Assembly (NCBI GenBank): GCA_018829905.1
Contig: JAHJST010000014.1
Span: 1-48,430 of the forward strand
Direction of reading: 5' to 3'
Source: Patescibacteria group bacterium
Lineage (GTDB): Bacteria; Patescibacteriota; Minisyncoccia; RBG-13-40-8-A
Length of the DNA: 48,430 bases
Positions 18,134 through 43,948 of the stretch are shown here, piece after piece (positions within the stretch are counted from its first letter, which is position 1; each line of letters begins with the position of its first letter). The notes under the pieces are model-generated. The model worked only from the letters and a program-made list of their open reading frames with translations, was not told the origin of the DNA and did no database searches. A program made the position numbers and the translations under genes.

Positions 18134-18144
18134 AGCCGACATCG

Positions 18145-21477: not shown

Positions 21478-21518
<41 letters not shown>

Positions 21519-22205: not shown

Positions 22206-22234
22206 AGTATATATCCGTTAAAATCGCTTGTCAA
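22206..22234 (-). promoter_or_regulatory. Promoter of the 23S-5S unit
   Basis: The minus strand reads TTGACA (22229-22234), a 17-nt spacer, then TATACT (22206-22211). The first 11 spacer nt (AGCGATTTTAA) nearly match those of the 16S promoter. Confidence 0.65.
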
Positions 22235-22276
22235 CCCCGTACCATGACAAGGCCATGGCACGGGATCAAATAAAAT

Positions 22277-22942
22277 CTATTTTTCAATATCTTGTCTTAA
22301 TCTTTCTAATATTAGTGTTGCATGATCTTTTCCACCCAAACCAAATGCTAATCCTCCTGCTAAAGCAACCATAGCAATCAATCCAATAACAACTGTTTGA
22401 ATTAATGTAGCTGCAATTCCTAGTTGAGTTAAAGCAATAACAAAACCAAAAACTAATATAGCCCATTTAACTATTCCTGCAACTGCACCAGCAGAAGCTA
22501 ATCCTGCAGTATCTGCAGCAGCTTTAACAAACTTCTTCATAAAATCTCCAACAACCACAGCTACTAAAAGAATTATTGCAGCAACAATTACATTTGGTAG
22601 ATAATAAAGAATTGTTTTTAAGAATAAAGCTACTTCTTGCAAACCAAGAATATCAACAGCTGTCATCAAGAAAACAATTATGAAAAACCACTTAACTAAT
22701 ACTTCAAAGAATTTTCCTGAATCTAACTTAAGTTTTGCTTTTGTTAAAGCTTTTTTAAAACCAAGCTTGTTTAACAAAATATCTAATTTAATTGTTTTAA
22801 CTATTTTATTAGCAACTCTTCCTAGAAAAATAGCAATTAACCAACCGATAATAAAAACAATTAATGCTGCCAAAAGGGTTGGCAAAAATCCTATAAAACT
22901 AAGCCAAACCTCTTGTAATGAGTCTAGTAATATTTCAAGCAT
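22277..22942 (-). CDS. Membrane protein with repeated TM-helix modules (small mechanosensitive-channel-like N-terminal repeat family)
   Basis: 221 aa with about 5 TM helices and Gly/Ala-rich repeats. It is followed by the hairpin cccgtaccatg/catggcacggg at 22236-22264. The functional call is weak. Confidence 0.7.
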   Translation of the reverse strand: MLEILLDSLQEVWLSFIGFLPTLLAALIVFIIGWLIAIFLGRVANKIVKTIKLDILLNKLGFKKALTKAKLKLDSGKFFEVLVKWFFIIVFLMTAVDILGLQEVALFLKTILYYLPNVIVAAIILLVAVVVGDFMKKFVKAAADTAGLASAGAVAGIVKWAILVFGFVIALTQLGIAATLIQTVVIGLIAMVALAGGLAFGLGGKDHATLILERLRQDIEK

Positions 22943-23091
22943 AATATTTAATTTTTAATTATTAATTATATTAATAAATCGACCTATATTAATTATATCA
23001 TAAAATCACGTTGTCAAGAAGATTTTTAATAAAAAAAGAGGAAAAGTTAACCCTTTTACCTCTTTTTGTTGAATTTATTAAAATTTTGGCT

Positions 23092-23547
23092 CTATTTCAT
23101 ATGTTCTTCATCATCATATATACAACTAATCACAAACTTAGTTTTATAGTCTTCATTCATTTTTTCTATAAAATCTTTAATACTTCTAAGTTGAATAATT
23201 CTCATAAAAGGACCAAGAACATCTTTTTGAATATCAATTAATCCACTAAAAAACAATATTTCAAAAAGCCTAAATTCTATATTTACCACTCTTAAAGAAC
23301 TGTTGTCTTTTATTTTCCAACCCCAAATTTCAAATAAATAATGTCTTTTCTTTTGCTTTAATATTAAACTAGACAACTTATCAATATCATTCTTAATGAT
23401 AAGATTTAATGTGTTATCTGCTAAAATAATTCTTTCTTTAATATTCTTAAGCAATTCTTTGGTTTCTAAAAATTCTTCAGCCAATTCCTTTTTTCTATTC
23501 AGCCTGTCTTTGAATCTTTTTGCGAAAGTCGATTTTACTTTTTCCAT
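23092..23547 (-). CDS. Hypothetical protein
   Basis: 151-aa ORF with a strong SD (AAGGAGGGAATA-ATG). Confidence 0.65.
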   Translation of the reverse strand: MEKVKSTFAKRFKDRLNRKKELAEEFLETKELLKNIKERIILADNTLNLIIKNDIDKLSSLILKQKKRHYLFEIWGWKIKDNSSLRVVNIEFRLFEILFFSGLIDIQKDVLGPFMRIIQLRSIKDFIEKMNEDYKTKFVISCIYDDEEHMK

Positions 23548-23761
23548 TATTCCCTCCTTAAATTTTAAATTTGCAGTGGACCCCAGTAGAAGACGTTCAA
23601 ACTTTTTATAAAGAAAATAACTTTAAAAGATGATCTTCAAATAAATTAATTAATCTATAAATTTAAAAAAAGAGTATTTGATTGAAAATATTTTTTCTAT
23701 TACTTGTAATTCTTTAATTGTAATACAATTAACCAAAATCCAAATTGGTTAAGCCATGATT

Positions 23762-23971
23762 CTATTTCTTAATTATTTTATCTACTCCAAATTTATGCCA
23801 CATTATTGCAGCCCCAATAATAAAAATTATTATTATTCCCAATTCTATTGGTTTATCCCAAACATATTTATAAAAACTAGGTCTTGAATAGGCATCTATA
23901 AATAAAACAAGTCCTGTTGCTATAACTAATAAAATTATTTTTAATTTTCTTTCCATTTTTTTCTTTTCCAT
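23762..23971 (-). CDS. Small two-TM membrane protein
   Basis: 69 aa with two hydrophobic helices. Confidence 0.5.
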   Translation of the reverse strand: MEKKKMERKLKIILLVIATGLVLFIDAYSRPSFYKYVWDKPIELGIIIIFIIGAAIMWHKFGVDKIIKK

Positions 23972-24073
23972 AAATTTATGTATTAGTTTTTAGAAAATAA
24001 GCTTACCAAAAAAAACAATTCTATCCTACATACTGCTCGGATGAAACGATTTTAGAGTCTTTATAGTCATAGA

Positions 24074-25054
24074 TTAATCGAAAGACTCTATGTTGCCTAT
24101 AATTTCAAAAATGGAATCATTGATTGGTTCATAAGAAATTTCATAAATGATAAAGATATCTTTATCTGAACTATCTAAATCTTCTTTAATCCTATAATAA
24201 AAAACATTTGTATCCTCTATTTTTAAAGGAATACCAGTTTCTTTTTCTATCCAGATTTTTACATTATCGCCATAAAGACCACCAAATTCTTCATATTTAA
24301 TAATAAATGTACTTTTGCCATTCACGCTTTCGCTTCCTAATAATACTGGATTTTCTTCAAGGGCCCTTATAACGTACTGAAATATGGTACCCTCTAATTT
24401 AGAACCACTATCAATCCTATTCCAATTATCATTTATAGGATCAAAATTTCTATAAAAATAATTATCTCTATAAATTATTTTTTGATTCATTTGAGGTGCT
24501 ATGAAATTAAAGGAATCTGTTCTAGCCATTTTGTCCCCAATCCAGATTTCCATATCCTCTACTTTTTCTTGTTTTTCTTCTCCATCGTAATTAATAGATA
24601 TATTTGTCCTTTCAACCTTACAACGAAAATCTGTTAAATTATTAAGTTTACTCAATGAATCAATTAGAACGCTCTTGGCATCTTTTAGCTCTTCTTTTTC
24701 TTCTTCTTGCTTTTTTGTTTCTTCTTCCGATAAAACAGAATTATTATCTTGATTTTTTTGCACTTCTTTGTTTTCAGATGGCTTAAGCTTTATATAATAA
24801 AATACACCACCACCAATTATAAGAAAAATAATAACCACAAGTGCAATCATTCCAAGCGTTTTTGATTCATTCTTTTTATTTGTATTAATAGTTAGCTCTT
24901 GTATTGATGATTTATTCAAAATTGGTTCTCTACTAAAAGCCTGATTAATATCTTCCTCTTTCCATCCGGCCTTTCTTAATTCTTGTTTTATCTGTTCGTC
25001 ACTAAAACCAGAATTTTTAGACTCTTTAATATAATTTTCTAATTCTTGATTCAT
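24074..25054 (-). CDS. Hypothetical single-pass membrane protein
   Basis: 326 aa. It has an N-terminal soluble helix-rich module (SGFSDEQIKQELRKAGWKEEDINQAF), one TM helix and a beta-rich C-terminal domain. Confidence 0.65.
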   Translation of the reverse strand: MNQELENYIKESKNSGFSDEQIKQELRKAGWKEEDINQAFSREPILNKSSIQELTINTNKKNESKTLGMIALVVIIFLIIGGGVFYYIKLKPSENKEVQKNQDNNSVLSEEETKKQEEEKEELKDAKSVLIDSLSKLNNLTDFRCKVERTNISINYDGEEKQEKVEDMEIWIGDKMARTDSFNFIAPQMNQKIIYRDNYFYRNFDPINDNWNRIDSGSKLEGTIFQYVIRALEENPVLLGSESVNGKSTFIIKYEEFGGLYGDNVKIWIEKETGIPLKIEDTNVFYYRIKEDLDSSDKDIFIIYEISYEPINDSIFEIIGNIESFD

Positions 25055-25241
25055 AAATTTAAATAATTAATAATTAATTAAAATCTTCTTAATGGTTCGA
25101 ACTTTTACTTTTAAGCACAATCTATCTTCAAAATGATGATTATTTAACAAATTATTTCTTTTTGCCTTACTCTAGAAGATTCGAAGCTCGAATCTTGAAA
25201 ACAAAACTAAATCAATTAAAAATCGATAAATTTCTTTTTTG

Positions 25242-25314
25242 TGGACCCGAGCGGATTCGAACCGCTGACCTCCTCATTGCAAATGAGATGCTCTACCAGC
25301 TGAGCTACGGGCCC
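25242..25314 (-). tRNA. tRNA-Ala (UGC)
   Basis: The reverse complement folds as a cloverleaf: GGGCCCG..GCTC AGCTGGTA GAGC..TCTCA TTTGCAA TGAGG..AGCGG TTCGAAT CCGCT CGGGTCC A. The G3:U70 Ala identity pair is present. No CCA is encoded. Confidence 0.95.
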
Positions 25315-25315
25315 A

Positions 25316-25389
25316 TGGGCGTACTTGGACTCGAACCAAGGACCTCATCTTTATCAGAGATGCGCTCTACCAGGCTGAGCTATACGCCC
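25316..25389 (-). tRNA. tRNA-Ile (GAU)
   Basis: The reverse complement folds as a cloverleaf with anticodon loop CTGATAA and T-loop TTCGAGT. It lies 1 nt from tRNA-Ala. Confidence 0.95.
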
Positions 25390-25450
25390 TAATTCAAAAT
25401 TAACCCCTAAATAAGGTTAATTTTGAATCAAATAAATCTATAAAAAGATC

Positions 25451-25615
25451 TTATGCTTTTCCCATTATTCTGAACATTCCAGTACCACAAGTAGGACAGC
25501 TACCCTTCATAGCTCTTCTCTTGCCACCCTTTCCTTTTATGGTAACTTCCTTTGGATCATTCATCTCAACATCTTTTTTGCGACATTTGACGCAATAACC
25601 TGTTATCTTGTCCAT
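25451..25615 (-). CDS. Small zinc-ribbon protein (54 aa, DUF5679-like) between 16S and tRNA-Ile
   Basis: This ORF is absent from the ORF track because it is shorter than 60 aa. It translates as MDKITGYCVKCRKKDVEMNDPKEVTIKGKGGKRRAMKGSCPTCGTGMFRIMGKA, with paired CxxC motifs. The family assignment is from memory. Confidence 0.6.
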   Translation of the reverse strand: MDKITGYCVKCRKKDVEMNDPKEVTIKGKGGKRRAMKGSCPTCGTGMFRIMGKA

Positions 25616-25887
25616 GTATATCTACGCCTTCATTCAATGGCTAGTTAAATGAAAACGATATATTAATTATTATCAAATTCCATTATATCTTTAAATAAAT
25701 AAAAAAACAAGCAAAAAGTCAAGCCCTTAGCCTGTGGATAAATTGAATTCTGTGTAGTTGCCCTGAAAAAACGATCTTCCTATAAGATACAAAGATCAAC
25801 ATCTCTTAAAATAAGATCAACCTAATTACTTAAAAAAGTAACTAAAAATATTGTTCCATCCACAGCTTCCGCTACGGATGCCTTGTT

Positions 25888-26104
25888 CATGAGGTTCCCT
25901 ATGTCGCCATAAGGCATGGACTATATCTTCACCCTTTATAAAGGGGTCCGGCGTGTAGTCTCTGAGGGGTCAATTACGACTTCCCTGCTGATTGTCTGCA
26001 CTAATACATTGTCACTTAATATAAGTAGTATTAGATACACAGAGTTTCCAGCATACAGCCAGATTTTTCTAAAAAGATTACTCTTTTTAGGTCACAACAA
26101 ATTT
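25888..26104 (-). mobile_element. ORF-less group I intron in 16S (approx. E. coli 1498, 3' of h44)
   Basis: The exons join as GACTAAGTCAT|AACAAGGCATCCGTAGCGGAAG. The guide GTGAC pairs with GTCAT. A GATATAGTC element is present and the intron ends in G. Length is 217 nt. Confidence 0.65.
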
Positions 26105-26191
26105 ATGACTTAGTCCTGGTCACCGAACTCACCTTAGGCCCCATTAAATGGGGACGTCGGGTGCTCCCGGCTTCCCTGACTTGACAGGCGG

Positions 26192-26616
26192 AATTCAATA
26201 GTAGAAAACTTACTTTGAGTTCCCACTTAGCATGCGGATTTCCCGCACTAAGCGAGTTCCTTTTCGAAATTCGAAAAAGATTTTGTCCTTCCTAAGTCTT
26301 TAGAAAAACTTAGTACTATGACGCAGCTGACTTCTCACGGTATCTATTGTTTTCAACAACCATGAGATCTCCTCGGGTTATTTATAGAACGATTCCTTAC
26401 ATCCCAAATTAAGGTTTTGCACTAAAGACCTTCTCCATAACCCACCGCTACATGGATCAATCACCTTTTAATAATTTGGGCTATAATTTGCCTTCAGATC
26501 CTTCAGCTTAAGCCTCGCGGCTTTAAGCCTATCCTTTGGCTACGCTTCTAGTCAAATCATCTAGAAAGGTTGGATTTTAACCAACTAGTTTTATAAACTG
26601 CCGAGCGCATTTATTT
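26192..26616 (-). other. Unclassified 425-nt insertion in the 16S decoding-centre region (approx. E. coli 1398/1399)
   Basis: The exons read ...CTTGTACTCA and CCGCCTGTCAAG..., matching UUGUACACA|CCGCCCGUCA. The insert has no ORF, no GATATAGTC element and no obvious internal guide. It contains long hairpins capped by GCGA (near 26515) and GAAA (near 26240). Boundaries are good to a few nt. Confidence 0.6.
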
Positions 26617-26944
26617 TGAGTACAAGATTTGAGAACGTATTCACCGCGGCGTAGCTGATCCGCGATTACTAACGATTCCAGCTTCATGAGGTCGAATTTC
26701 AGACCTCAATCCGAACTGAGACCAACTTTGATGGGATTGGCTCCACCTTACGGCTTAGCAACCCATTGTATTGGCCATTGTAGCGCCTGTGTTGCCCAGG
26801 GTATCAGAGGGCCATGCTGACTTGGCGTCATCCTTTCCTTCCTCCTCATATAATGAGGCAGTCTTCTGTGACACTTATAACACAGAACAAGGGTTGCGCT
26901 TGTTACCCGACTTAACGGAGCAACTCACGCCACAAGCTGACGAC

Positions 26945-27193
26945 CATATTCATCCATAATTACTTATGGTATGGACTATACCATCCTCCAGACTGGAGGC
27001 CAGCGTTTAATGATGGGTTATAACCACCATTAAGCTTTTCTGCCCAGAAAAGCTTAGTCTCTACGGGGTCTTTTTAAAAAAAGACTTCCCACGATATTGC
27101 CCATTCTTTAATAAAAGAATTTGGGTTTCATCGTTATGAGCTGGTTTTTCAATCCCGATTGCTCGGGAAAGGGCCGTGTATCTAAAAGATACC
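26945..27193 (-). mobile_element. ORF-less group I intron in 16S helix 34 region (approx. E. coli 1060)
   Basis: The exons join as GCTGCATGGCT|GTCGTCAGCTTGTG. The guide GGCC pairs with GGCT. A GGTATAGTC element is present, and the 3' hairpin CCATAAGTAATTATGG is shared with the 23S intron at 16405-17244. Length is 249 nt. Confidence 0.68.
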
Positions 27194-27739
27194 AGCCATG
27201 CAGCACCTGTCCTAATGTCCTTGTAGAAATCTCTTGTTTCCAAGAGGGTTCATTAGGATTTCAAACCCTGGTAAGGTTCTTCGCGTAGTATCGAATTAAA
27301 CCAGACGCTCCACCGTTTGTGCAAATCCCCGTCTATTCCTTTGAGTTTTAGTCTTGCGACCGTACTTCCCAGGCGGGATACTTAACGCGTTAGCTTCGCC
27401 ACTTGAAGGGTCGATACTTCAAACAGCTAGTATCCATCGTTTACAGCGTGGATTACTGGGGTATCTAATCCCATTCACTCCCCACGCTTTCGTCTCTCAG
27501 GGTCAGGAATGCGCCAGCTAAATGCCTTCGCCTTTGGTGTTCCTTAAGGTATCAACGGATTTCACCCCTACTCCTTAAGTTCCATTAGCCTCTCACATCC
27601 TCTAGTTTAGCCGTATCTTTTGCAGACTTGATGTTGAGCATCAAGATTTAACAAAAGACGCACTAAACCCCCTACAGACGCTTTACGCCCAATAATTCCG
27701 GACAACGCTTGGGGCACTCGTATTACCGCTCCTGCTGGC

Positions 27740-28641
27740 CGTTGACAATTTTACAATTGCGTTGGACTATATCACCACCCAGTATTAATATACTGGGGCT
27801 CAGCGTATTATGTCAGTTTATTTTCCTGATTATCAGGTACCTGACATCTTTCTAGTTTAATTCTAGAAAAGTCTCTGAGGGGTTGTCTGTATTGTGGTAA
27901 TTTATACTTAAAACAATTTAAAATATATGGTGAAATAATTTTAATAAACTTATTTCTTCCTTTTGAACCTATATATATTCTAGGATATCTTTTTCCTCTA
28001 ATCAGATTATTGTAGACATTAGATTCAATGCCAAAGTTTTTCATTAATATATCTCTTAATTTTTCAACTTCTTTAACAGAAAAACAATGTGTTGATAAAT
28101 AAAAGCTACAATGATCGTTTGGTCTATAGTCTATACTACCATCATCCATATACCAAATTGCTAAAGACAAAGGAGATACTAATAATTGTTCTATGTTTTT
28201 TGGAATAATTTTTTTCTTATTAGAATAAAACATTTCTCTAAACACATTTAAGTCTTTAATAGACTTGGTTAAGAAATACCATTGCTGATTATCTTTTCTT
28301 TGTTTTGGTTCTGAACGACAAATGTTTTTAAACTTATTATATAGCCAAAAAACATATTCTTTGCTTTCTTGCTTTTGTTTAAAACCAAAAGAAGTAGAGA
28401 CATAAGGTCTGATTAAAAAACCATCACCCAATAAATTCCCAATTAGTATATCAATTTGTCTTTGAGTTAAAATATTTTTGACAAAATCTATCATATATAT
28501 TATTTTATCATAATTTTAACCTACAAACAACTTCCCTGCGGATTGCCACATAAAATGGTTTCCCGCATATAAGCTAAGTTTTTCCATATTGCATTACTGC
28601 AATAGGTCGCGCCACCCTTTACGAGCAAAGGATGTACTTTC
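27740..28641 (-). mobile_element. Group I intron in the 16S 530 loop (E. coli 516 site) carrying a LAGLIDADG gene
   Basis: The exons join as CTAAACTCGT|GCCAGCAGGAGCGGTAATAC. A GATATAGTC element is present and the intron ends in G. Length is 902 nt. Confidence 0.72.
27808..28494 (-). CDS. LAGLIDADG homing endonuclease (intron-encoded)
   Basis: 228 aa with motifs LLGDGFL and WYMDDGS. Confidence 0.9.
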   Translation of the reverse strand: MIDFVKNILTQRQIDILIGNLLGDGFLIRPYVSTSFGFKQKQESKEYVFWLYNKFKNICRSEPKQRKDNQQWYFLTKSIKDLNVFREMFYSNKKKIIPKNIEQLLVSPLSLAIWYMDDGSIDYRPNDHCSFYLSTHCFSVKEVEKLRDILMKNFGIESNVYNNLIRGKRYPRIYIGSKGRNKFIKIISPYILNCFKYKLPQYRQPLRDFSRIKLERCQVPDNQENKLT

Positions 28642-29331
28642 ACGAGTTTAGGAGCCCCTTATTCCTAGGGTGATCTCAAAAATTGTTCCCCTAGAAAAGA
28701 ACTTTACACCCCGAAGGGCTTCTTCATTCACGCGGCGTCGCTCCATCAGACTTTCGTCCATTGTGGAAGATTCTCGACTGCTGCCTCCCGTAGGAGTGAG
28801 GCCCGTATCTCAGTGCCCCTGTTGGGGATCGCGCTCTCACGCCCCCTACCCGTCATAGCCTTGGTAAGCCATTACCTTACCAACAAGCTGATAGGCCGCA
28901 GGCCACTCTCTAACCAATAAATCTTTACCCAAAAGGGATTATCGGGAATTATTCCGGATTTCTCCGGGTTATGCCCGAGTTAGAGGTATGTACCTACGTG
29001 TTACTAACCCGTCTGCCATGGGCCTAAACCCATTCGACTTGCATGCCTTATCCACGCCGCCAGCGTTCGTCCTGAGCCAGGATCAAACTCTCAATATAAG
29101 AATCATCACAAAATTCAGCACAAATAAGTAAACTTATACGTGCCTTATTTGTAATGATCAATAGATCAGGACAACTACACAAAATTCAATAGTTGTCTAT
29201 TCAGTTATTAAAGAACAACTTAAAACAGAGTTTAAACTTTTTTAAACAAAAAAACCTAAACTCTGTTTTAAACGTACTGGTAAATTGTGAGTTAATTTCA
29301 CATAAAATTAATATTAATACTTGTATTATCA

Positions 29332-34050: not shown

Positions 34051-34227
34051 TTATTTCTTTTCTTTTTTTCTTCTCAATGATCCACCAGAAGTTCCCACTT
34101 CGAACGAAACCGAACCCTTCGGCCAAATCCTTGCTAAGTCTTCTTTGGAAATCGCTGTCCCGTCCTTTATCGACTGCTCGTTCAACTTCCTTACTCTCTC
34201 GTGTAATTTCTCTAATTCTGTTGTCAT
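34051..34227 (-). CDS. Possible 58-aa ORF downstream of the SAM riboswitch
   Basis: This ORF is absent from the ORF track because it is shorter than 60 aa. It translates as MTTELEKLHERVRKLNEQSIKDGTAISKEDLARIWPKGSVSFEVGTSGGSLRRKKEKK. It has no SD. Its coding status is uncertain. Confidence 0.35.
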   Translation of the reverse strand: MTTELEKLHERVRKLNEQSIKDGTAISKEDLARIWPKGSVSFEVGTSGGSLRRKKEKK

Positions 34228-34250: not shown

Positions 34251-34279
34251 TAAAAAACTCTTTCCGCGAGGAAAGAGTA
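34251..34279 (-). terminator. Expression-platform terminator of the SAM riboswitch
   Basis: The minus strand reads ACTCTTTCC-TCGC-GGAAAGAGT followed by TTTTTT. The upstream aptamer 3' segment GGGGAAAGAT can alternatively pair with CTCTTTCC. Confidence 0.7.
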
Positions 34280-34289
34280 ATAAAAAAAT

Positions 34290-34402
34290 CGACCTTTATC
34301 TTTCCCCTTATGGGGCTGGAGTTAGCACCTTCTTTAAAAAATCACCTTAAAGGGTTGCTGACGGGTCGTAGAGCCAGAACTCTCACCGCACTCTTGATAA
34401 TT
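34290..34402 (-). promoter_or_regulatory. SAM-I (S-box) riboswitch aptamer
   Basis: The minus strand reads TTATCAAGAG-TGCGGTGAGAGTTCTGGCTCTACGACCCGTCAGCAACC-(P3)-AAGGTGCTAACTCCAGCCCCATAAGGGGAAAGATAA. This matches the conserved S-box strings AUCAAGAG, CUGGC, GCAACC, GGUGCUAAxUCC and AAAGAUxA, and P1 is TTATC/GATAA. A TTGACA-17-TAAACT promoter lies at about 34425-34452. Confidence 0.75.
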
Positions 34403-34466
34403 ATTATTTAATTGTATGTATTTAGTTTAATTTATAATAAATGGTTTGTCAAATTTTTAATTAATT

Positions 34467-35330: not shown

Positions 35331-35406
35331 ATATTATTGTTTTTAAATAATCGATTAACATCATCCTCCGCGGATGGGACGATTTTTAAACTTTTGTGGT
35401 CATGAA

Positions 35407-36099
35407 TTATTTACCAATAGTTTCCCATGGTGCTTCGTGACATTTTTCTGATTTCTCTAATCTCACTAATTCTGGTTTTGACACCCTTCTACTATAAAGC
35501 ACATCAGGTTTTCCAGATTTTTTAAATAAATCAATTGCTTCTCCAATATTCACATTAATTTTTTTAATTTTAGGATTAATAATGACTACCCTTGCTATAG
35601 TATCAGGGCGTCTTTGAGTTTCTTGTATCGTCCAAACAGGAAAGGGAATTTCATTTTTATTTAAATAGTCTCTTATTAATTTATATTCACTTTCAACATT
35701 TAGTCCTATGCCTATATTTACTGCTAAAATATATTCTTCAGACAAAGTATTAATATTCGGCTTAACTTTGGTTCTCTTAAGCTGTTCAAGTAATGATTCT
35801 TTCGGTTCTCCAATATATGAAGTAATTTCTACAAGATAAAGAAGATTTGTCCCCTTGGGCTCTATAAAAGGCTGCATAAGTATGACATCGGGAGGGTCTG
35901 GTTTGTAAAGCTGAAGATAAGTTGGTTCTCCTGTTCTCTGAAAAAGTATTGATGCCATAACAAATCCCACATTTGCTTCTCTTACATTTTGATATTCAGT
36001 TTTTTTATCAACGACATCATAACCTATTTTCTTGATAAGTTTTTGTATGTGCCAATAGGTATTCACCGGCGAGTGCCAAGTTTTACTAGTATTTATCAT
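35407..36099 (-). CDS. Hypothetical protein, last gene of the methylase-helicase operon (possible PD-(D/E)xK-like fold)
   Basis: 230 aa. KPDPPDVIL...LYLVEITSY is loosely nuclease-like. It starts 31 nt after the preceding gene. Confidence 0.6.
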   Translation of the reverse strand: MINTSKTWHSPVNTYWHIQKLIKKIGYDVVDKKTEYQNVREANVGFVMASILFQRTGEPTYLQLYKPDPPDVILMQPFIEPKGTNLLYLVEITSYIGEPKESLLEQLKRTKVKPNINTLSEEYILAVNIGIGLNVESEYKLIRDYLNKNEIPFPVWTIQETQRRPDTIARVVIINPKIKKINVNIGEAIDLFKKSGKPDVLYSRRVSKPELVRLEKSEKCHEAPWETIGK

Positions 36100-36130
36100 A
36101 TTTTACATTTGTTATATTAATTCACTAATT

Positions 36131-37003
36131 CTATTTATTATTTTTTGTCTTATTGTCTAATTCTTTTTGTTTTAAAAACGCCTCTAAAGAATGTGATTGT
36201 TCTACTCTTAAAATATTTTTTAAAAAATCTTCTTCTATTTTGTTAACTTGTCTTTCGGAAATATTTTTGAATACATCTGAAACTTCTTGTGCTCTATCTA
36301 GAATAAACCTTCCAAAAAGACCATCCTTAACTAATTGTTTGGTTTTTACCCTTCCTGACTTTTTAATCTTTGTTCCTTTCCATAATCTATTTTTCGGAGG
36401 AGATATAAAAGAAACAATAATAATTTTGCATAATTTGTTATAAATAAATATTATTTTATTATTTTGTGAATGAACCAACGTTCCATCTGTTGCTCTTCCT
36501 AAATACCATTGAATTTTTTCTGGAATAATTTCAGTATTAACATTATATGCATAATCAATAAAAAAAATATGGTGCTGATAAGGTTTTGTATTTTTTATTC
36601 TTCCATTTAAAAATGCTCTGTATGTAGCCTCTGCATTTATAACCCACTCTAACTCCTTATATTTATCAAAATGATTAATCAATGTTCTCCAAGATAAAGA
36701 AACAGCAAACTTAAGTAATTCATTTTTATAATTAGATGTCACCTTTTTCCTATTATGATAGGGATAAAAAATATTTTTTGAAAACCAAGTTTCATGTTTT
36801 GAAAAGGAAACCTCGCAATCTATGCATAAAAGAAACTTTTTTTCGGCATCTTGAATCCTTTTATTTGGAGCTATGGCTGATCTAAGTCTTTTTGTTATAG
36901 AGCTTTCTTTTAAATATTTTATAACGAAAGCTGGAATTATATGACTTCTCTTTAATGGTTTGGTAAAACCACAAAGAAAACATTTTCTATTATTGTTTTT
37001 CAT
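36131..37003 (-). CDS. Hypothetical protein with an N-terminal HNH-like/zinc-finger motif
   Basis: 290 aa with CFLCG-x8-SHIIP ... LLCIDCEVSFSKHE (two CxxC pairs flanking an H-I-I-P). Its start overlaps the methylase stop by 14 nt. Confidence 0.65.
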   Translation of the reverse strand: MKNNNRKCFLCGFTKPLKRSHIIPAFVIKYLKESSITKRLRSAIAPNKRIQDAEKKFLLCIDCEVSFSKHETWFSKNIFYPYHNRKKVTSNYKNELLKFAVSLSWRTLINHFDKYKELEWVINAEATYRAFLNGRIKNTKPYQHHIFFIDYAYNVNTEIIPEKIQWYLGRATDGTLVHSQNNKIIFIYNKLCKIIIVSFISPPKNRLWKGTKIKKSGRVKTKQLVKDGLFGRFILDRAQEVSDVFKNISERQVNKIEEDFLKNILRVEQSHSLEAFLKQKELDNKTKNNK

Positions 37004-40000
37004 TTAGCTCAACTGTTTTAATTTCCTCTTTTTTTAATCCATATAATTTATAAACTAATTGATCAATTTGTTTTTCGTATTCATGAACTTTATCTTGCTT
37101 TCTTGGATTATTCATATAATCGTTTTCATGAGTGATGACGAGAATTTGCCGGACAAGATTCGATATTTTTATTTGTTCAGCTTTGCTTGCAATTACAAGA
37201 GGGAGTTTTTTTACATGAGTTAGTTTAACTTGAGGGAAGACTCTACCAGCTTCCTTTACTAAAACATTATACTCTCTCTCAATATAATGTGAATTTACTA
37301 CACCTAAGATATAATATATATCTAGCTTTGATTTATAATCCTCTTTTATGAATGCACACTGAATCGTATTTCTGAACCAACGGCTACTTGTATCTAGTGT
37401 AGCTCGAAGGCAGGACGCGGTTTGTCTCCACAGTATCTTTGGAGACATAGTAAAGACCTCTCGGGTAAAACTTACACTCTCATTACTTTTTAGTATATCA
37501 CGATAATCTAAGTTAAAATATTCGTCTGTTTGTGATGCAATGCGCCACTTATCTATTAATCTACCGTACCATACTGGAATGCTATTATTAAATTGTTTTG
37601 GGTTACTATTAAATAATCGTTCGTAAAGATCATTCCCACCTTTGTTTTTTAAACCTATGCCCGATCGATGGTATTGTATGCCTGCGTCTCTAATCTCAAG
37701 TGTATCTGAAAATAAAACTTCATTCTCACGTAACGATCTTCCCCAAAATAAGCTCATATCCTTTGCTGCAAAAACTTGTTGCAAAAGAATTTCTTGAAAG
37801 GCGACATTATCAAGACTTCCTGCAAACTTACTTCCTTCACTCATGTCAGCAAAAAGATAAGTATTACATGGTTGCGATCGCACAATAAACGATAATGCCG
37901 TAGGAACAATAATATTCTCAAAGACTTCTTCACCCAAATTTACAATTTTGAGAATCCGAAATTGTAAAATAACACTGCGTATATCTTTGTATCTTGGCTG
38001 GGCAAGGAACGTGTTGGGAGTAATAAAGGCTTGAATTCCATTATTTCTTAATTTCCGAAGTCCTAATTGTATAAACATTTTGTAAACGTCGGCATAATTC
38101 TTAATCGCATCTTGGTAGAGAGGTCGTAGCACGGGCAAGATCTCATCAATATTTGCCCCATATGGTGGATTCGCAATCATTACATCAAATCCACCCTTCT
38201 CGTGAAAAACTTCTGAGAAATATACCTCATAATCAAAATCCTTGAGGCCATTGGTGATCTTGCTGATAAGTTCGTCAATTTGCTCTTTGTATGCCTGTTT
38301 TCTACTCACGCTGGTTTCGTTGAAATAAAGCGGCTTGAGTTTTTCGAGCCGGTTGAATAGCTCCTGGTTAAACAAGGTTTTCTCAATACTCAAAAGTGAA
38401 TCACCATGCACGATTTTGTAATTAAGGTTCGGTAATGGTTGAATTGTTTTTCTGTCTTCCTCATCTACTACAAGTGAAAGCCATAATCGAAGCTTGGCAA
38501 TTTCTACAGCTCCTTGATCAATATCTACTCCATAGAGACAGTTTTGTATGGCGTGACGCTTAAAATTGTATGGATTTCTTTCACCATCCTTGCCGATGTA
38601 AGGCGTTAAAACATTTCGGGTTCTGATAATTTCCTTCATCATGCCAACTGGAAAAGCACCTGAACCTACAGCGGGATCGCACACACGGATTGACTTCAAC
38701 TTTTCATCAATTAGCTTGGCGTGTTTGCGTATATTCTCGGAAAGACTAAAACTGTAGCGATCAGTTTCGCGTCCCTCATTTACTACTCGGCTTTCATACT
38801 CAATAACGGCCTCGCCGTATTTAATCATCGTTTCGATATCTTCCTTACTAACTTTGCCTTCAAGTTCAGTCACCAAATAATAAGTTAAACTTTCTCGACA
38901 CATATAGTGGACAACTTCTCTGGGTGTATAGTAAGTTCCTCTTGATTTTCTGTCTTTAACCTCTAAAAGATTTTCAAATACTTTTCCAAGCATTTCTGGA
39001 TCTACGGCAACTTCTTTTTCTAATGGTTCATCTTCTTTAACTGTAAAATTATATCGATCGAAAACATCTAGAATACCAGTACCAATATCGCCTTGTTTTG
39101 TTTTTTCATTATTTGAAAACAATTCATTTAATAATTCTATATCTGTATCTTGCCAATCATAATCATTTAATGGATCAAAAAGCCCACCATTTAGAAATGG
39201 TATCCGACATTTAAACTGAGCATAATAATCTTTAGGTCTTTCTAGTCGAAGCACCTCATAAAAAAGTGGTTCTAAAACATCATTAAAAAAATTCTTATAA
39301 TCAGCATGCTTTTTTTCAAAAAGTTGACGCAAAAAATCCTTTGGCCCGGTTCCCCAATTTTCATTACGCCCAACGCCAAACCAACCCTTTTTTTGCAAAA
39401 AATATAAAAATACAATTTGACCCAAAAGCTTTTTTGCAAAATCAACAGAATCAACTTTTTTTTGCACAAAATCTTTCTTAATTGCAGAATCTTTTTTAAT
39501 AATCTCATCAAGCCCTTCTTTAAGTCCCCAAAAAAGATCACGATACCTTTCAAAAAATTCCTTTGTGACTTTTTCAACACTGAATGCTTCTTCTAATTCT
39601 TTAAGCGTTGGATCATTAGAATCATCTTGCAAAATTGGCGCTAATCTACTTTGAGCAGTATGACTATTTTCATTTTCACCAACCAAAAAAGAAAATCGCC
39701 TAGCAGGCGTTAGCTCTTGCTTAACCCTCACCCTTTCTCCAGAAGTATCAATTTTATAATCCATTTTAACCAAAGAAAATCGCCAATCTTCTGAATCAGG
39801 TGAAACAAAGGCAACCAGGGCTGCATCCTTTAAAATATCTCCCCTACTACCATTTAAATACCAAGCAATAAAATTTCTTTGCATTGTACGAGCTCGCTCA
39901 AGAGATGTTTCTTTTTTAAGTTGGACAATCAATATATCAATCTTATTGTCATCTACATCTTCATATTTTCCAATTCTTTCTAGGGTTTGTATATATGGCT

Positions 40001-40151
40001 TATATGCATCTGGAATATAATTACCTCGATAAACAAAAGATTTTTCTTCAATATGATTAAATAAATTTTTAATAAAACCAATAAAACGTCCTTTGTCGAA
40101 AGGATTTTCAAAAACTTCTTTAATTTGTTGAATGGCAAAATTTTTATCCAT
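36990..40151 (-). CDS. Large N6-adenine DNA methyltransferase, Eco57I/PglX/DrmMI-like (MTase plus C-terminal specificity region)
   Basis: 1053 aa with the SAM motif VCDPAVGSGAFP and catalytic motif IANPPYGA. It has the helical FLYFLQKKGWFG region typical of this family and a long C-terminal region. Confidence 0.88.
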   Translation of the reverse strand: MDKNFAIQQIKEVFENPFDKGRFIGFIKNLFNHIEEKSFVYRGNYIPDAYKPYIQTLERIGKYEDVDDNKIDILIVQLKKETSLERARTMQRNFIAWYLNGSRGDILKDAALVAFVSPDSEDWRFSLVKMDYKIDTSGERVRVKQELTPARRFSFLVGENENSHTAQSRLAPILQDDSNDPTLKELEEAFSVEKVTKEFFERYRDLFWGLKEGLDEIIKKDSAIKKDFVQKKVDSVDFAKKLLGQIVFLYFLQKKGWFGVGRNENWGTGPKDFLRQLFEKKHADYKNFFNDVLEPLFYEVLRLERPKDYYAQFKCRIPFLNGGLFDPLNDYDWQDTDIELLNELFSNNEKTKQGDIGTGILDVFDRYNFTVKEDEPLEKEVAVDPEMLGKVFENLLEVKDRKSRGTYYTPREVVHYMCRESLTYYLVTELEGKVSKEDIETMIKYGEAVIEYESRVVNEGRETDRYSFSLSENIRKHAKLIDEKLKSIRVCDPAVGSGAFPVGMMKEIIRTRNVLTPYIGKDGERNPYNFKRHAIQNCLYGVDIDQGAVEIAKLRLWLSLVVDEEDRKTIQPLPNLNYKIVHGDSLLSIEKTLFNQELFNRLEKLKPLYFNETSVSRKQAYKEQIDELISKITNGLKDFDYEVYFSEVFHEKGGFDVMIANPPYGANIDEILPVLRPLYQDAIKNYADVYKMFIQLGLRKLRNNGIQAFITPNTFLAQPRYKDIRSVILQFRILKIVNLGEEVFENIIVPTALSFIVRSQPCNTYLFADMSEGSKFAGSLDNVAFQEILLQQVFAAKDMSLFWGRSLRENEVLFSDTLEIRDAGIQYHRSGIGLKNKGGNDLYERLFNSNPKQFNNSIPVWYGRLIDKWRIASQTDEYFNLDYRDILKSNESVSFTREVFTMSPKILWRQTASCLRATLDTSSRWFRNTIQCAFIKEDYKSKLDIYYILGVVNSHYIEREYNVLVKEAGRVFPQVKLTHVKKLPLVIASKAEQIKISNLVRQILVITHENDYMNNPRKQDKVHEYEKQIDQLVYKLYGLKKEEIKTVELNEKQ

Positions 40152-40152
40152 A

Positions 40153-43100
40153 TTAATTACTTAAAAAATATTCAGACAAGATAACTTCTCTTGGTCCAAA
40201 AGTCTGAGCAGCGCTCTCAGAAACGTGTTCCTTTAAAAGTTCATTTGGAATGTTTTTCTGTAAAACAGCTATAATCTTTAAAGGGTTTATACCATCTTTT
40301 AAAACTAGATCTAATTCTTTAAGTGTTCTTTTGGTTGTTTGCTTGGGAAATCCTCCCTCTATAAGTTGTCTCATAATCTGTCCAAGATAGGCTTCTTGGT
40401 CTTCTGTAAGTCTTCTGAAGTCTTTTATGGCCTTTAGACGCATCAAAACCTGAGTAGCAGTATCTCTGCCTCCTTTCATTTTTAAATCTGGCATTTCTTC
40501 GGTTGTAACAAAAAGAAATTCTTGTTTATTTATATCTAACAATTTATAAAAATTTTTATCTAATTTCTTTTTCTTTAAATCAATAGTCACCTCTAATAAA
40601 TCTGCAGCAGAAATAAAGTCTAATTCTTGAGATTTTTTAATATTAGCTAAAAAGAATTTTTGAAGCTTACCTTTTCGAAAATAAGTTAAAAGACTATTTG
40701 CATTATTTTTTTCAACCCTAGCAGTACGTGATTTTTTAGGCAATTGTTTAATTTTAGAAAATAAATCTGGATTATCATCACGAATTTTTTTAATAATCTG
40801 AAGATACTTAAGCTCGCTTTTTTCTTTTTCATCTTCGCCTGTAATTGTTTTTTTAGAAATCAAGCGATTAAATAATTCATGAGAACCAATTAGTTCACCA
40901 TCTGTTAAAAGTCTAGCATCTGATCCCAAAAGACTTATAAAAGCATGTATCTTGGCTTCAGCTGTTTCTCTAAGCTTTATTTGACTGTTTGATTGTATGG
41001 TTGGAAAAAAATTAAAAGCATAGATTTTAGAAAAATTAGTATCAACTCTATTGATACGACCAACTCTTTGCATAAGTCTTGTTGGATTCCACGGAATGTC
41101 ATAATTAATAACAACATTTGAACGATGAAGATTAACACCCTCTGATAATACTTCTGTAGTAACAAGTATTCGATAATCGTTTTTTGGAAAACGTGCTCCT
41201 GCATCAAAATTTTCAATTACCTTTTCTCTTGTTGATACGCTAGAGTCACCAGAAAAAGATATGGCTTGTTTTGGAAATTTTTTATCCAAATTTTTAGCAA
41301 GATAATTAGCTGTTTCTTTTGATTCTGTAAAAACAATTAATTTATTATTTTTTAAAACAGCTCGCGAAAAAAGAATGTTTATAAATTTAAGCAATTTAGG
41401 ATCGCGATTAACATCGCGCCACAATTTTTTAATTTCTTTTAATATATTCAGATCATTTTCTAAATCTTCTTTAAATTTTTTCTTAAAATTCTTAGAAGAA
41501 TATTTCTGTGCTTTGTCTTCATCTACTAAAGATTGAATTCTTTTTTCATCATCATTTTCAAGAAATTCAAAAATTTTATTAATATATTTTTTACTAGTAT
41601 AAACATTGCCTTTATTAAATTCTTCTAAGAACTTTTCATATGAATGAATAAATCTATCTATTGAGTTTCTAAAAGCAAAAAAACTACTTTCTAATCTTTT
41701 AATTAAAAGTATCTTCATAAATTTACCCATATTTTCCTGAGACAATTTTTCTGGCTGGGAAACTGAACCATTATAATACTTTGGAAGCAAGGGAGTATAA
41801 CGAGCGTATTTAAATCTTCTCACTATAAGATCTATTGTTTTATTAAAAACATTATCTTCTTCTTTATTAAGCTCATAAAATACAGCCTCTGGATCAGACA
41901 CTTCTGGAAATTTAAGTCCTTGTTTTTTTAAATCATCCTTAAAATAATTTTCAATTTCAGACCTTGTTCTTCTAACCATTAAATATTTAAGTACTTTTTC
42001 TCTAATTTCTTTGGCGTTTTCTTTTGAAATCTCAATATATTTTTCTCTGTTTGTTTGTTTGTTTAATTTTTTAACTCTTTGATCAAGCTTAGAAAAAAAC
42101 GATTCTAAGTTGGGTAAACCAGGAATTGTACTTTTTTTAACTTTTTGAAAAAGTTTAATTTGGCTTAAAATGTCTTTTGGATGATTATTGTATGGTGTGG
42201 CTGTTACAAGAATAACTCTTTTACCACGACAAATTCGAGATAATTTTTCATAAGTTATATTTGTTTCTGTTCTAAATCTGTGAGCCTCATCAATAAACAC
42301 ATTCTTGTATTTATCAATCCCAGATTTTAATAATTTATCTAATTTACCGATAGATTCAAAATTAGTTTGTCTAACCTGAAAATCTTCAAATACATTTGGC
42401 CAAGATCCTGGATTGTCTTTTTCTAAAAGCATTGGGGGTGCTATAACCAAATTTCTACCATCAAGTTGATTTGCAAGCATGGCTGAAATATATGTTTTAC
42501 CAAGCCCAACAACATCAGAAATAAAAACACCACCATATTCTTCAAGAATTTTTTTTGCATTTAGAACAGCTTGTTCCTGATATTCTAATTTCTTAAATCT
42601 GGCTGGTGTGTATTTATATAAAACTTCTTCTGATTGTTTTAATTCGTCCTTAAAATATTCATATAAAAATTTTAAATAAAGCTCATATGGCGTAATATTA
42701 TTGTTAAACCAAGTTTTAGTCTGTATAGTCTCAATATATTCTTTGCTTACATCTATTGAATCCTTCCAAAGCTCATTAAATTTTTGTAAAGCAAATTCAT
42801 AATCATTTTTATTTTTAAGCTCTACATTAAACTCTAAATTATCTACCAGTCCTGCTTTAGTAAAATTACTTGAACCGACAATAACTCTATTGGTAGTCCC
42901 TGTTTTCATAGATGTCATAATATAAAGTTTTGCATGAATGTTTGCAGCAGGATATGCTTTTATTTCTAATTTTCCACTCTTTAACCATTCTAAAAATTTA
43001 CTTATCCCTTCTTCTACTTGTCTATTGTCTTTAGATTCTCTTATTTCATTTATAATTGCTTCTGAAAATTGTTCTTTCGTCTCTGCATTAGAAAATCTGA

Positions 43101-43344
43101 ATGATTGTTGTTTTTCTCGATCATTTTGCTGAATAAGATCTACGGTTTCTTTATTGGTACTAATTCCTATAAGTATTCTGATCTTTTCTGTTTTTTCTAA
43201 AGACTTGTAAATCTCATAAAAGCCACTTGTATAAAAATAACCAACCATAACATCAAAAAATCCAGTATCTTTAATAAGTACCTTGAATCTTTCTAAAAGA
43301 TTACTGTCTTTTTCGTTTATAATAAATGTTGTATTTTTATCCAT
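40153..43344 (-). CDS. Fusion protein: N-terminal PLD-family (HKD) nuclease domain plus SNF2-family helicase
   Basis: 1063 aa. The HKD motif is NIHAKLYIMT...VIVGSSNFTKAG. Helicase motifs are I DVVGLGKT, II FIDEAHRFR, III LVTATPYNN, V LSEGVNLH and VI QRVGRINR. Confidence 0.88.
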   Translation of the reverse strand: MDKNTTFIINEKDSNLLERFKVLIKDTGFFDVMVGYFYTSGFYEIYKSLEKTEKIRILIGISTNKETVDLIQQNDREKQQSFRFSNAETKEQFSEAIINEIRESKDNRQVEEGISKFLEWLKSGKLEIKAYPAANIHAKLYIMTSMKTGTTNRVIVGSSNFTKAGLVDNLEFNVELKNKNDYEFALQKFNELWKDSIDVSKEYIETIQTKTWFNNNITPYELYLKFLYEYFKDELKQSEEVLYKYTPARFKKLEYQEQAVLNAKKILEEYGGVFISDVVGLGKTYISAMLANQLDGRNLVIAPPMLLEKDNPGSWPNVFEDFQVRQTNFESIGKLDKLLKSGIDKYKNVFIDEAHRFRTETNITYEKLSRICRGKRVILVTATPYNNHPKDILSQIKLFQKVKKSTIPGLPNLESFFSKLDQRVKKLNKQTNREKYIEISKENAKEIREKVLKYLMVRRTRSEIENYFKDDLKKQGLKFPEVSDPEAVFYELNKEEDNVFNKTIDLIVRRFKYARYTPLLPKYYNGSVSQPEKLSQENMGKFMKILLIKRLESSFFAFRNSIDRFIHSYEKFLEEFNKGNVYTSKKYINKIFEFLENDDEKRIQSLVDEDKAQKYSSKNFKKKFKEDLENDLNILKEIKKLWRDVNRDPKLLKFINILFSRAVLKNNKLIVFTESKETANYLAKNLDKKFPKQAISFSGDSSVSTREKVIENFDAGARFPKNDYRILVTTEVLSEGVNLHRSNVVINYDIPWNPTRLMQRVGRINRVDTNFSKIYAFNFFPTIQSNSQIKLRETAEAKIHAFISLLGSDARLLTDGELIGSHELFNRLISKKTITGEDEKEKSELKYLQIIKKIRDDNPDLFSKIKQLPKKSRTARVEKNNANSLLTYFRKGKLQKFFLANIKKSQELDFISAADLLEVTIDLKKKKLDKNFYKLLDINKQEFLFVTTEEMPDLKMKGGRDTATQVLMRLKAIKDFRRLTEDQEAYLGQIMRQLIEGGFPKQTTKRTLKELDLVLKDGINPLKIIAVLQKNIPNELLKEHVSESAAQTFGPREVILSEYFLSN

Positions 43345-43405
43345 AAGCTTATTTTGATACTCAAATTATTACACCCTAATTCTACCCCGTCACGACCAAA
43401 AAAAC

Positions 43406-43424
43406 AACCCTGCTTAGCAGGGTT
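43406..43424 (-). terminator. Terminator after the NUDIX gene remnant
   Basis: The stem aaccctgc pairs with gcagggtt, followed by a T-run on the minus strand. It overlaps the stop of the second reading-frame segment. Confidence 0.65.
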
Positions 43425-43948
43425 ATTCTATTTTTTCAACAAAATCAATTTTATGTTCAACCACCTTATCATTTTCATCAAAAAAGAAAGTACCTATGAA
43501 TCTTCTATTATCCAAAACATGAGGCAACCAATATTTATCATCATCCCACATCTCGTTATAAATAAGGAATAGATTCTACTAAAAACCATTCGGGCTTCAT
43601 TTCCTCTGTTTCTTCTGGTTCTCCATCCCATTCATTAAATACAAAGATATGTACTTGCTGATCATTTTTCTTTTTATCTCCTGGAAAATAAAAATCGATT
43701 ATAGCAACTTTTTCTAAATTTTTAGGTACAATACAAGCTTCTTCTTGAGATTCCCTAATAGCTGAATCAAAAACATCTTTATCTCCTTTTTCTAGATCTA
43801 TTTTACCTCCTAATCCATTCCATCTGTTTGCACCAAAACCTCTTTTTTTCATTGCCAGAAGAATCTCTGTTATTAATCCTCTATTCTCTCTTATTCCCAA
43901 ACAAAGTGAAACTTGTCTCATAATTTTTTTCTCCTTTAAATATATCAT
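43423..43948 (-). pseudogene. MTH1/MutT-like NUDIX hydrolase interrupted by a frameshift near 43556-43562
   Basis: Frame 1 carries the Nudix box GGKIDLEKGDKDVFDSAIRESQEEACI and stops at ...ESIPYL*. The next frame continues as YNEMWDDDKYWLPHVLDNRRFIGTFFFDENDKVVEHKIDFVEKIE*. This is collinear with the C-terminus of MTH1-type enzymes (IPFKDMWPDDSYWFP...). Confidence 0.7.

Follow-up and report, generated by a model that had tools for sequence, protein, structure and literature searches.

A conserved helicase-nuclease and adenine methylase gene pair, probably followed by two unrelated passenger genes, in a Patescibacteria genome

Introduction

The DUF499-centred BR systems, also known as Hma, are defined by a DUF499 ATPase, and the Type-2 BR systems add a DUF3780 protein and an HKD-SNF2 effector, the DUF3780 protein (MtsB) being present in 98% of Type-2 BR loci (PMC12839542). 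Type-2 BR is the same as MANTIS or Gao_RL (MtsABCD), in which MtsD is a SauUSI-like HKD-SF2 dimer directed by the target-recognition domain (TRD) of MtsC; the latter is an alpha-class enzyme with a central TRD, motif I at position 241 and motif IV at position 621 (10.64898/2026.09.23.753747). Restriction-linked passenger genes have been described as "auxiliary and backup effectors" (PMC12839542). Here we analyze a four-gene locus, genes 1 to 4, in contig JAHJST010000014.1 (assembly GCA_018829905.1) of a Patescibacteria group bacterium. The window is the whole stretch of DNA analyzed, 48,430 nucleotides (nt) long. The product of gene 1 has the build of the MANTIS effector, an SF2 ATPase with an HKD/PLD nuclease joined to its N-terminus, and like it is related to SauUSI; gene 2 encodes a large adenine methylase.

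The original prediction, made from the sequence letters, took the four genes for a candidate undescribed defence system with two novel components. Our analysis leads to another view. Genes 1 and 2 are a conserved, widespread restriction-modification (R-M)-like pair, with near-obligate co-inheritance in bacteria and archaea, and the conserved unit is two genes, not four. The region as a whole is probably a two-gene ATP-dependent R-M-like module followed by two unrelated passenger genes.

Results

Genes 1 and 2 form a conserved pair

Relatives of gene 1 were collected by a scan of one genome per species, which returned at least 587 of them, and 80 loci were taken together with their flanks. The presence of relatives of genes 2, 3 and 4 in these 80 loci was judged by tblastn. 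In 66 of the 80 loci the gene 1 homologue is directly followed, on the same strand, by a gene 2 homologue. Among the 14 loci lacking it, 11 are on contigs that stop within about 500 nt of the helicase, and in two more the contig stops at 1.4-1.8 kb, inside a recurrent inserted gene. The sole true exception is locus L024, where a gene 1 homologue stands without a methylase. Loci with the pair span many bacterial phyla as well as Nanoarchaeota, Promethearchaeota and Thermoplasmatales, and the spacing between helicase and methylase is 1-20 nt across domains of life. Only distant gene 1 relatives (at most 36% identical) were found in the plasmid collection; a Parabacteroides plasmid copy, 31% identical, retains the pair, annotated merely as "SNF2-related protein" and "N-6 DNA methylase".

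No relative of gene 3 or gene 4 was detected in any of the 80 pair loci. Conversely, no relative of gene 1 or gene 2 was present in 19 further loci with gene 3 or gene 4, nor were genes 3 and 4 ever together in them. Homologues of genes 3 and 4 are thus essentially unlinked to the helicase-methylase pair elsewhere, and the proposal of a single four-gene system did not hold. The broader idea of a self/non-self system combining methylation with a helicase-nuclease stands for genes 1 and 2 and falls for genes 3 and 4 as its components.

The arrangement of the pair has already been noticed in passing. PADLOC holds a candidate model "HKD+Snf2", and a list within PMC9881135 includes the same two genes, as Cj0031-like enzymes with an adjacent PLD+SNF gene. 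The word "undescribed" was therefore too strong for the pair, for which neither a name nor a functional test was found in the literature searched.

The helicase-nuclease

The translation of gene 1 contains the motifs HAKLYI/GSSNFT, GLGKT, DEAH, TATPYNN and QRVGRINR, and Pfam assigned PLDc_2, SNF2-rel_dom, ResIII and Helicase_C domains to it, in agreement with the HKD/PLD-SNF2 fusion initially proposed. The ResIII match is of 25 bits only and lies inside the helicase core. The PADLOC "HKD+Snf2" model matches residues 8-801 (E 1.1e-47). The gene 1 family comprises more than 7,695 proteins at E <= 1e-30. Its top matches, 66-75% identical, come from Elusimicrobia, Planctomycetes, Deltaproteobacteria, Zixibacteria and Patescibacteria, and identity across bacterial phyla and archaea is 53-75%.

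Alignment of 70 homologues revealed that H137, K139 and G157-S-S-N160 of the nuclease motif are invariant. The ATPase motifs are kept in the same homologues: Walker A GLGKT (280-284), DEAH (352-355), motif III TATP and motif VI QRxGRxNR (759-766). Since each chain has one HKD motif, a dimer would be needed to build one active site. A profile of the HKD domain matched SauUSI best (PDB 7CLG, E 1.5e-11), followed by Zucchini/MitoPLD and BfiI; judged by profile comparison, SauUSI is the closest solved relative of this domain. The C-terminal part of about 280 amino acids (aa) has neither a Pfam match nor a relative among PDB sequences, and no modified-base reader was recognisable in gene 1 by Pfam and PDB sequence searches.

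The methylase

Gene 2 had been described as a 1053-aa gamma-class N6-adenine methyltransferase (MTase) with a specificity-like C-terminus, and this description was upheld. The translation contains DPAVGSGAF and NPPYG, and Eco57I, N6_Mtase and TaqI_C domains were assigned by Pfam. Motif X is located at about residue 405, motif I at 492 and motif IV at 661, with the TRD last, at the C-terminus; it is this order that makes the enzyme gamma-class. The catalytic residues are retained in an alignment of 44 homologues, in which the first 600 aa are 53-83% conserved per 50-aa window and the TRD region (750-1000) is hypervariable, at 17-36%. By far the best match was to PADLOC REase_MTase_IIG model PDLC03596 (E 1.6e-266, 885 bits, full length), while DrmMI gave 87 bits and PglX 73-86 bits (PADLOC, NCBIfam). 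The earlier label "PglX/DrmMI-like" therefore understated what gene 2 is.

The first 380 aa of gene 2, taken as an isolated domain, have no match in Pfam and no PDB relative by profile search. No D..(D/E)xK triad is conserved in residues 1-380, and comparison with the HSDR_N domain of a fusion enzyme by hhalign revealed no similarity. An exhaustive HMMER search gave no assignment for the domain but placed it in 2,831 cluster representatives. Among the 150 matches listed it is always N-terminal, and the full-length proteins are 1000-1300 aa long.

The GC content at 37400-38900, in the MTase core and TRD of gene 2, is 35-41% in surroundings of about 27-30%, which fits a recombined or recently acquired specificity segment. 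Neither long inverted repeats nor duplicated TRD cassettes were found, so phase variation was rejected.

The full-length match of gene 2 to a Type IIG model and the affinity of the gene 1 HKD domain to SauUSI are also what speaks for the main rival explanation, namely that two systems lie side by side, gene 2 being an autonomous Type IIG enzyme with an N-terminal nuclease and gene 1 a separate, SauUSI-like Type IV enzyme. According to PMC9881135, Cj0031-like IIG enzymes are found alone, too. Independent systems are, however, made less likely by near-obligate co-occurrence at such short spacing in different domains of life. The N-terminal domain of gene 2 shows neither a conserved PD-(D/E)xK triad nor a match to a nuclease family, and gene 1 has no recognisable reader of modified bases, its C-terminal domain being without Pfam or PDB match. 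Besides, a Type IV enzyme next to an adenine methylase would carry a risk of self-restriction. We consider the coexistence of two such systems unlikely.

Genes around the pair

No third conserved gene was found around the pair in the 80 loci, and the neighbours are almost all singletons. An extra gene is located between helicase and methylase in about 22 of these loci. It encodes a Schlafen/AlbA_2+HATPase_c_4 protein in nine loci and a Bro-N protein in four; TumE, RhuM and Fic are found in others. Genes that trail the methylase include AAA_13, OLD-family ATPase, UvrD, HTH+Peptidase_M78, HKD nuclease and HIT genes, as well as SIR2_2, ApeA, SMODS, DUF3800 and DUF4365. No DUF499 was detected among ten neighbouring open reading frames (ORFs), nine of them of about 720-1090 aa, scanned in seven related loci. 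The position downstream of the pair is a variable defence-cargo slot, which is filled by genes 3 and 4 in this genome.

The Schlafen/AlbA_2+HATPase_c_4 gene is the commonest extra gene accompanying HKD-SNF2 genes. It is inside the pair in loci L030, L031, L038, L050, L056, L061, L065, L071 and L080, while two distant versions have it ahead of the helicase, L187 (5436-6980, pair kept) and L127 (516-2240, methylase not seen).

Genes 3 and 4

As noted initially, the products of genes 3 and 4 are not recognised by database searches: neither has a significant match in Pfam, PADLOC, NCBIfam or PDB sequences. In 18 gene 3 sequences, C8, C11, H21, P24, C60 and E64 are invariant and C63 and N47 near-invariant, forming the pattern C8-x2-C11...H21-I-I-P24...N47...C60-x2-C63-E64. 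Comparison of the family with HNH profiles gave matches that were all below threshold, to HNH_5 in 5 of 18 sequences (best E 0.074) and to HNH_2 in one. The AlphaFold2 (AF2) model of gene 3 is confident (pLDDT 90.8, pTM 0.90), and nothing below E 0.05 was returned by a fold search of PDB or BFVD. The residue pattern suggests an N-terminal zinc finger of Cys4/His type with an HNH-like motif, and gene 3 probably encodes an HNH-like nuclease whose body domain is new. Assignment to DUF4238 (Rst_DUF4238), suspected from the string SHIIPAF..LK, was rejected, the 18 members giving no such Pfam or PADLOC match even at E <= 10.

Homologues of gene 3 occur in varied contexts. One follows a Type I hsdM-hsdS-hsdR operon (L001), others are upstream of a HinfI-type Type II R-M pair (L003/L004), and one is separated by 1.7 kb from an HSDR_N+N6_Mtase enzyme (L092). 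Further homologues neighbour a PIN toxin-antitoxin pair (L093), belong to an integrase element (L094) or stand on their own (L005, L006). A metagenome scan yielded 116 further relatives, and a viral scan found seven on viral or prophage contigs. In a set of 96 gene 3 loci (64 of them informative) the biggest neighbour cluster comprised four loci. R-M probes matched within 3 kb of the gene 3 homologue in at least 10 of the 96, and most homologues are solitary. In metagenome locus L117 a DNA methyltransferase fused to LexA_DNA_bind and Peptidase_S24 domains (3002-4504) was observed together with a gene 3 homologue.

In the gene 4 family, DPPD (68-71), E91, T93 and K111 are invariant (DPPD...ExT...K). 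The AF2 model is of alpha/beta type (pLDDT 90.3), with a strand order compatible with the alpha-beta-beta-beta-alpha-beta core of PD-(D/E)xK enzymes. Foldseek matches to SPARDA, Hjc and a cap-snatching nuclease were non-significant (E 0.015-0.18, TM <0.3), and the acetyl-CoA carboxylase central domain was also weakly matched in the fold search. Going by the model, gene 4 may have a PD-(D/E)xK-like core. Some gene 4 homologues are fused to an N-terminal HTH_17 domain. Others start 4 nt past a gene for a 1003-1018-aa protein with a RelA_SpoT domain (L007 6986-10687, L008 705-4451), and the two may constitute a separate two-gene module. Integrase or resolvase elements (L009/L010, L098/L099) also contain homologues. 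In L011 the surroundings are housekeeping genes, and in L095-L097 the homologue comes at the end of a Type I operon carried by a mobile element; no gene 4 relative was found on viral contigs. In locus L007 a methyltransferase with the same LexA_DNA_bind and Peptidase_S24 fusion (4992-6830) is present along with a serine recombinase and the gene 4 homologue.

Genes 3 and 4 are not paralogues of each other (hhalign probability 0.1%). The possibility that either is an analogue of MANTIS MtsB/DUF3780 was likewise rejected, as no Pfam signal was seen even at E <= 10, with the families included.

Because genes 3 and 4 are absent from the 80 pair loci and occur in varied contexts elsewhere, we take them not to be part of the system formed by the pair. 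The balance of evidence favors unrelated, independently mobile passengers, each probably a defence or addiction gene that works alone or as a backup. The alternative is an integrated defence system of all four genes, to which genes 3 and 4 would contribute novel dedicated components such as a sensor, a loader or a second nuclease. The operon-like packing of the locus agrees with this, including the overlap of genes 2 and 3 and the short gap that follows, and MANTIS demonstrates that an HKD-SF2 and methylase pair can require two extra proteins (MtsA, MtsB). A distant link was seen at L127, the only one of the 96 gene 3 loci where an HKD-SNF2 gene (27% identical) lies 0.7 kb upstream of the gene 3 homologue. 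No methylase is visible there, and the locus is part of an island with Schlafen and AbiEi genes that adjoins a terminase. A four-gene system is nevertheless very unlikely, as the pair is highly conserved without genes 3 and 4, these two never occur together elsewhere, their homologues accompany Type I, Type II or RelA/SpoT genes or stand alone, and neither carries a P-loop or a DUF499/DUF3780 signature.

Locus layout and host

Coordinates of the four genes, of their domains and of the putative boundaries of the unit are given in Table 1. The ORF list and translations reproduced the layout reported earlier exactly: all four genes lie on the minus strand, with genes 1 and 2 at a distance of 1 nt, genes 2 and 3 overlapping by 14 nt and genes 3 and 4 separated by a 31-nt gap.

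Table 1. Features of the four-gene locus, in window coordinates
Feature	Position	Strand	Description
Gene 1	40153..43344	-	ORF, 1063 aa; HKD(PLD)-nuclease / SNF2-type ATPase fusion; motor nuclease of the pair
Gene 1 HKD nuclease domain	42766..43188	-	residues ~53-193; single HKD motif
Gene 1 SNF2/SF2 ATPase core	40990..42588	-	residues ~253-785; conserved motifs, Pfam domains
Gene 1 conserved C-terminal domain	40156..40989	-	residues ~786-1063; 52-76% conserved per 50-aa window
Gene 2	36990..40151	-	ORF, 1053 aa; gamma-class N6-adenine DNA methyltransferase, C-terminal target-recognition domain
Gene 2 conserved N-terminal domain	39012..40151	-	residues 1-380; candidate coupling domain for gene 1
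Gene 2 methyltransferase core	37812..39011	-	motif X GTYYTPR, motif I DPAVGSGAF, motif IV NPPY
Gene 2 hypervariable target-recognition region and C-terminal helix	36993..37811	-	low column identity; TaqI_C match
Gene 3	36131..37003	-	ORF, 290 aa; probable passenger
Gene 4	35407..36099	-	ORF, 230 aa; probable passenger
Intrinsic terminator	43398..43424	-	stem AACCCTGC-TAA-GCAGGGTT, then GTTTTTTT; 3' of the frameshifted NUDIX gene
GC-rich hairpin	35361..35377	.	30 nt past the gene 4 stop codon; minus strand without T-run

The terminator separates the NUDIX gene from gene 1 and is the 5' boundary of the gene 1 transcription unit. The GC-rich hairpin is a possible 3' boundary, for which the evidence is weak because a T-run is missing on the minus strand. 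A promoter scan found 37 sigma-70-like sites against 47.8 in shuffled sequences, fewer than expected, and was not used as evidence. One 11/12 match (TTCACA-16-TATAAT; 37266-37293, minus strand) falls within the 3' end of gene 2, some 260 nt ahead of gene 3, and may be due to chance, given a site count below the shuffle expectation.

The four genes had been placed in an accessory stretch flanked by a decayed NUDIX gene and, further on, TA and transposase genes. The NUDIX gene (43424-43948, minus strand) is indeed split by a frameshift near 43556, and its C-terminal part (...YNEMWDDDKYWLPHV...) runs on in another frame as far as the terminator. The scanned flanks contain L32, NusB, RNase III, an S41 peptidase and one DUF6922 protein (Pfam), transposase genes were not confirmed in them, and the accessory stretch is essentially the four genes alone.

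A CPR-like host (CPR, Candidate Phyla Radiation) is a reasonable assignment, as originally suggested, since the rRNA genes are interrupted by introns and the closest homologues are from Patescibacteria. The window has a GC content of about 30%, and its rRNA operon contains group I and group II intron elements. The operon (15921-29098) is heavily interrupted. The 23S gene has a group I intron at 19819-20131 and a detached 3' fragment at 16082-16323, about 2.8 kb off the main body with ORFs in between, and the 16S gene is extended to 2.5 kb with a 228-aa ORF within. Further intron elements are a group I element at 25897-26116 and a group II D1-D4 match at 26285-26367. A SAM (S-adenosylmethionine) riboswitch was detected at 34257-34403 on the minus strand (66.8 bits), directly followed by a terminator-like hairpin. 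Between it and the L32 gene (33493-33780) there is nothing substantial, just one 58-aa ORF (34051-34227), and the riboswitch could control a very small gene or be an orphan.

Discussion

Analogy with Type III/ISP enzymes and with MtsC/MtsD of MANTIS makes an ATP-dependent R-M system the most likely function of the pair. Gene 2 would methylate a short, probably asymmetric host motif and so provide the self mark. On unmethylated invading DNA it would recruit or license gene 1, and the conserved N-terminal domain of gene 2 (380 aa) is the probable means. By ATP hydrolysis, two protomers of gene 1 would then communicate along DNA and dimerise, two half HKD sites would be joined into one active site, and both strands would be cut. 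Genes 3 and 4 would be co-transcribed with the pair in this genome, yet would not be components of the module.

Several points weigh against this picture. Restriction by a MANTIS-type effector has not yet been reconstituted in vitro (10.64898/2026.09.23.753747). Matching as it does a model labelled Type IIG, gene 2 could cut DNA itself. The overlap of genes 2 and 3 means tight local coupling, and the gene 3 and gene 4 families recur beside R-M systems of other types, so these genes may conceivably be functionally linked to R-M in general. A further point is the single link at L127.

A bolder version of our reading would make the pair a distinct two-component class of ATP-dependent R-M, with a new N-terminal coupling or licensing domain that is not a nuclease, and genes 3 and 4 "R-M guard" effectors. 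If so, the trigger for genes 3 and 4 would be the disabling of the neighbouring restriction system by a phage, and this would account for the presence of their homologues behind R-M operons of several unrelated types; gene 3 would join a new fold to a zinc-finger HNH-like motif. We regard this joint reading as rather unlikely.

The pair might also be a degenerate remnant or a minimal derivative of class 1 DISARM or of BR type-2/MANTIS/Hma whose core was lost in a reduced CPR genome. Partial matches to DrmD, DrmMI, HmaA and PglX models point in this direction, as does the HKD-SNF2 and N6-MTase logic common to the pair and Type-2 BR. Such an origin is hardly probable, however, because in 66 loci, from large as well as small genomes, the norm is the same two genes with no DrmA/DrmB or DUF499/DUF3780; the model scores are far under their cut-offs (DrmD 134 versus 610, PglX 86 versus 500); and MtsC is alpha-class while gene 2 is gamma-class. 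The least probable proposal is that the pair is not a defence system at all but an epigenetic regulator (an orphan methylase) with a DNA-remodelling or repair helicase-nuclease: related IIG-like methylases do phase-vary and change gene expression (Anjum et al., as cited in PMC9881135), but the TRD is hypervariable, the pair is spread patchily over phyla as horizontal transfer predicts, defence cargo is consistently embedded beside it and the nuclease motif is intact.

An R-M-like pair of this kind exposes a gap in the catalogue of defence systems, as a two-gene module present in at least 587 species-representative genomes is given only generic names by annotators. The pair could be a simpler model than MANTIS or DISARM for the licensing of an HKD-SF2 effector by a methylase, because it combines a SauUSI/MtsD-type motor nuclease with a gamma-class methylase without an AAA+ loader. 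Genes 3 and 4 add two more uncharacterised, structurally confident families to the passengers of defence islands, and gene 3 is of interest in its own right, with a confident model that has no recognisable fold. The locus is also a caution for genome scans: operon-like packing, even with overlapping start and stop codons, did not mean one system.

Comparison with known systems

Class 1 DISARM and the pair have three activities in common, those of an SNF2 helicase, of a large N6-adenine methylase and of a PLD nuclease. PADLOC demands all five of DrmA, DrmB, DrmC, DrmD and DrmMI; neither DrmA nor DrmB (DUF1998) was found by Pfam in the four genes or the flanks, as predicted. The PLD domain of gene 1 is fused to the helicase, whereas DISARM has a separate DrmC. 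Gene 1 scores 134 bits on NCBIfam DISARM_DrmD (cut-off 610), and the 87 bits of DrmMI on gene 2 are an overall score whose best stretch covers only residues 483-592. The absence of BREX and Type I genes, also part of the original prediction, was likewise corroborated: no PglZ or BrxC domains (Pfam, PADLOC) and no Methylase_S, HSDR_N or EcoEI_R_C domain (Pfam) are present in the locus, and gene 2 reaches 86 bits on BREX-1 PglX against a cut-off of 500 (NCBIfam).

MANTIS differs from the pair in its DUF499 AAA+ ATPase (MtsA) and DUF3780 protein (MtsB), neither of which is encoded by the window genes, and no conserved third gene takes their place in the 80 loci. Its methylase MtsC is alpha-class, unlike gene 2, which is a gamma-class protein of 1053 aa with a conserved 380-aa N-terminal domain. 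On NCBIfam NF042964, a PLD anti-phage equivalog model not confirmed as MtsD, gene 1 scores 140 bits (cut-off 1100).

Type IIG enzymes (Cj0031/CjeFV-like, Eco57I-like) resemble gene 2 in the full-length profile match, the MTase-TRD single chain and the Eco57I and TaqI_C domains. In contrast to them, no nuclease motif or family could be recognised in the N-terminal domain of gene 2 by triad, Pfam, PDB and HSDR_N searches, the last three of which covered residues 1-320, and gene 2 nearly always has a separate HKD-SNF2 protein as its partner, something that classical IIG enzymes can do without. The Type III Res subunit has a C-terminal PD-(D/E)xK nuclease and is partnered by the Mod subunit. Type III and Type ISP systems share with the proposed mechanism a methylase-TRD unit that loads or licenses an SF2 ATPase-nuclease and an ATP-dependent communication before cleavage. 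The nuclease of gene 1 is, however, an N-terminal HKD domain rather than PD-(D/E)xK, its motor is SNF2-like, the methylase is gamma-class and IIG-sized, and there are two polypeptides as opposed to the single chain of ISP enzymes. SauUSI (Type IV, PDB 7CLG) has the PLD nuclease and the SF2 ATPase in the same order as gene 1. It is an autonomous enzyme that recognises modified cytosine with its own C-terminal TRD, whereas gene 1 has a different C-terminal domain, lacking a Pfam or PDB match, and a methylase partner.

Genes 3 and 4 resemble restriction-linked passengers, such as those of PrrC type in Type I loci, in that they fill the variable position in an R-M operon, and their homologues likewise follow R-M operons of Type I and Type II. 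To known passenger families they have no sequence or fold relationship (Pfam, PADLOC, NCBIfam, PDB and BFVD searches). The pair itself is none of DISARM, BREX, Type I or Type ISP, and no named system fits it. We conclude that it is most likely a variant of ATP-dependent R-M with BREX-related logic.

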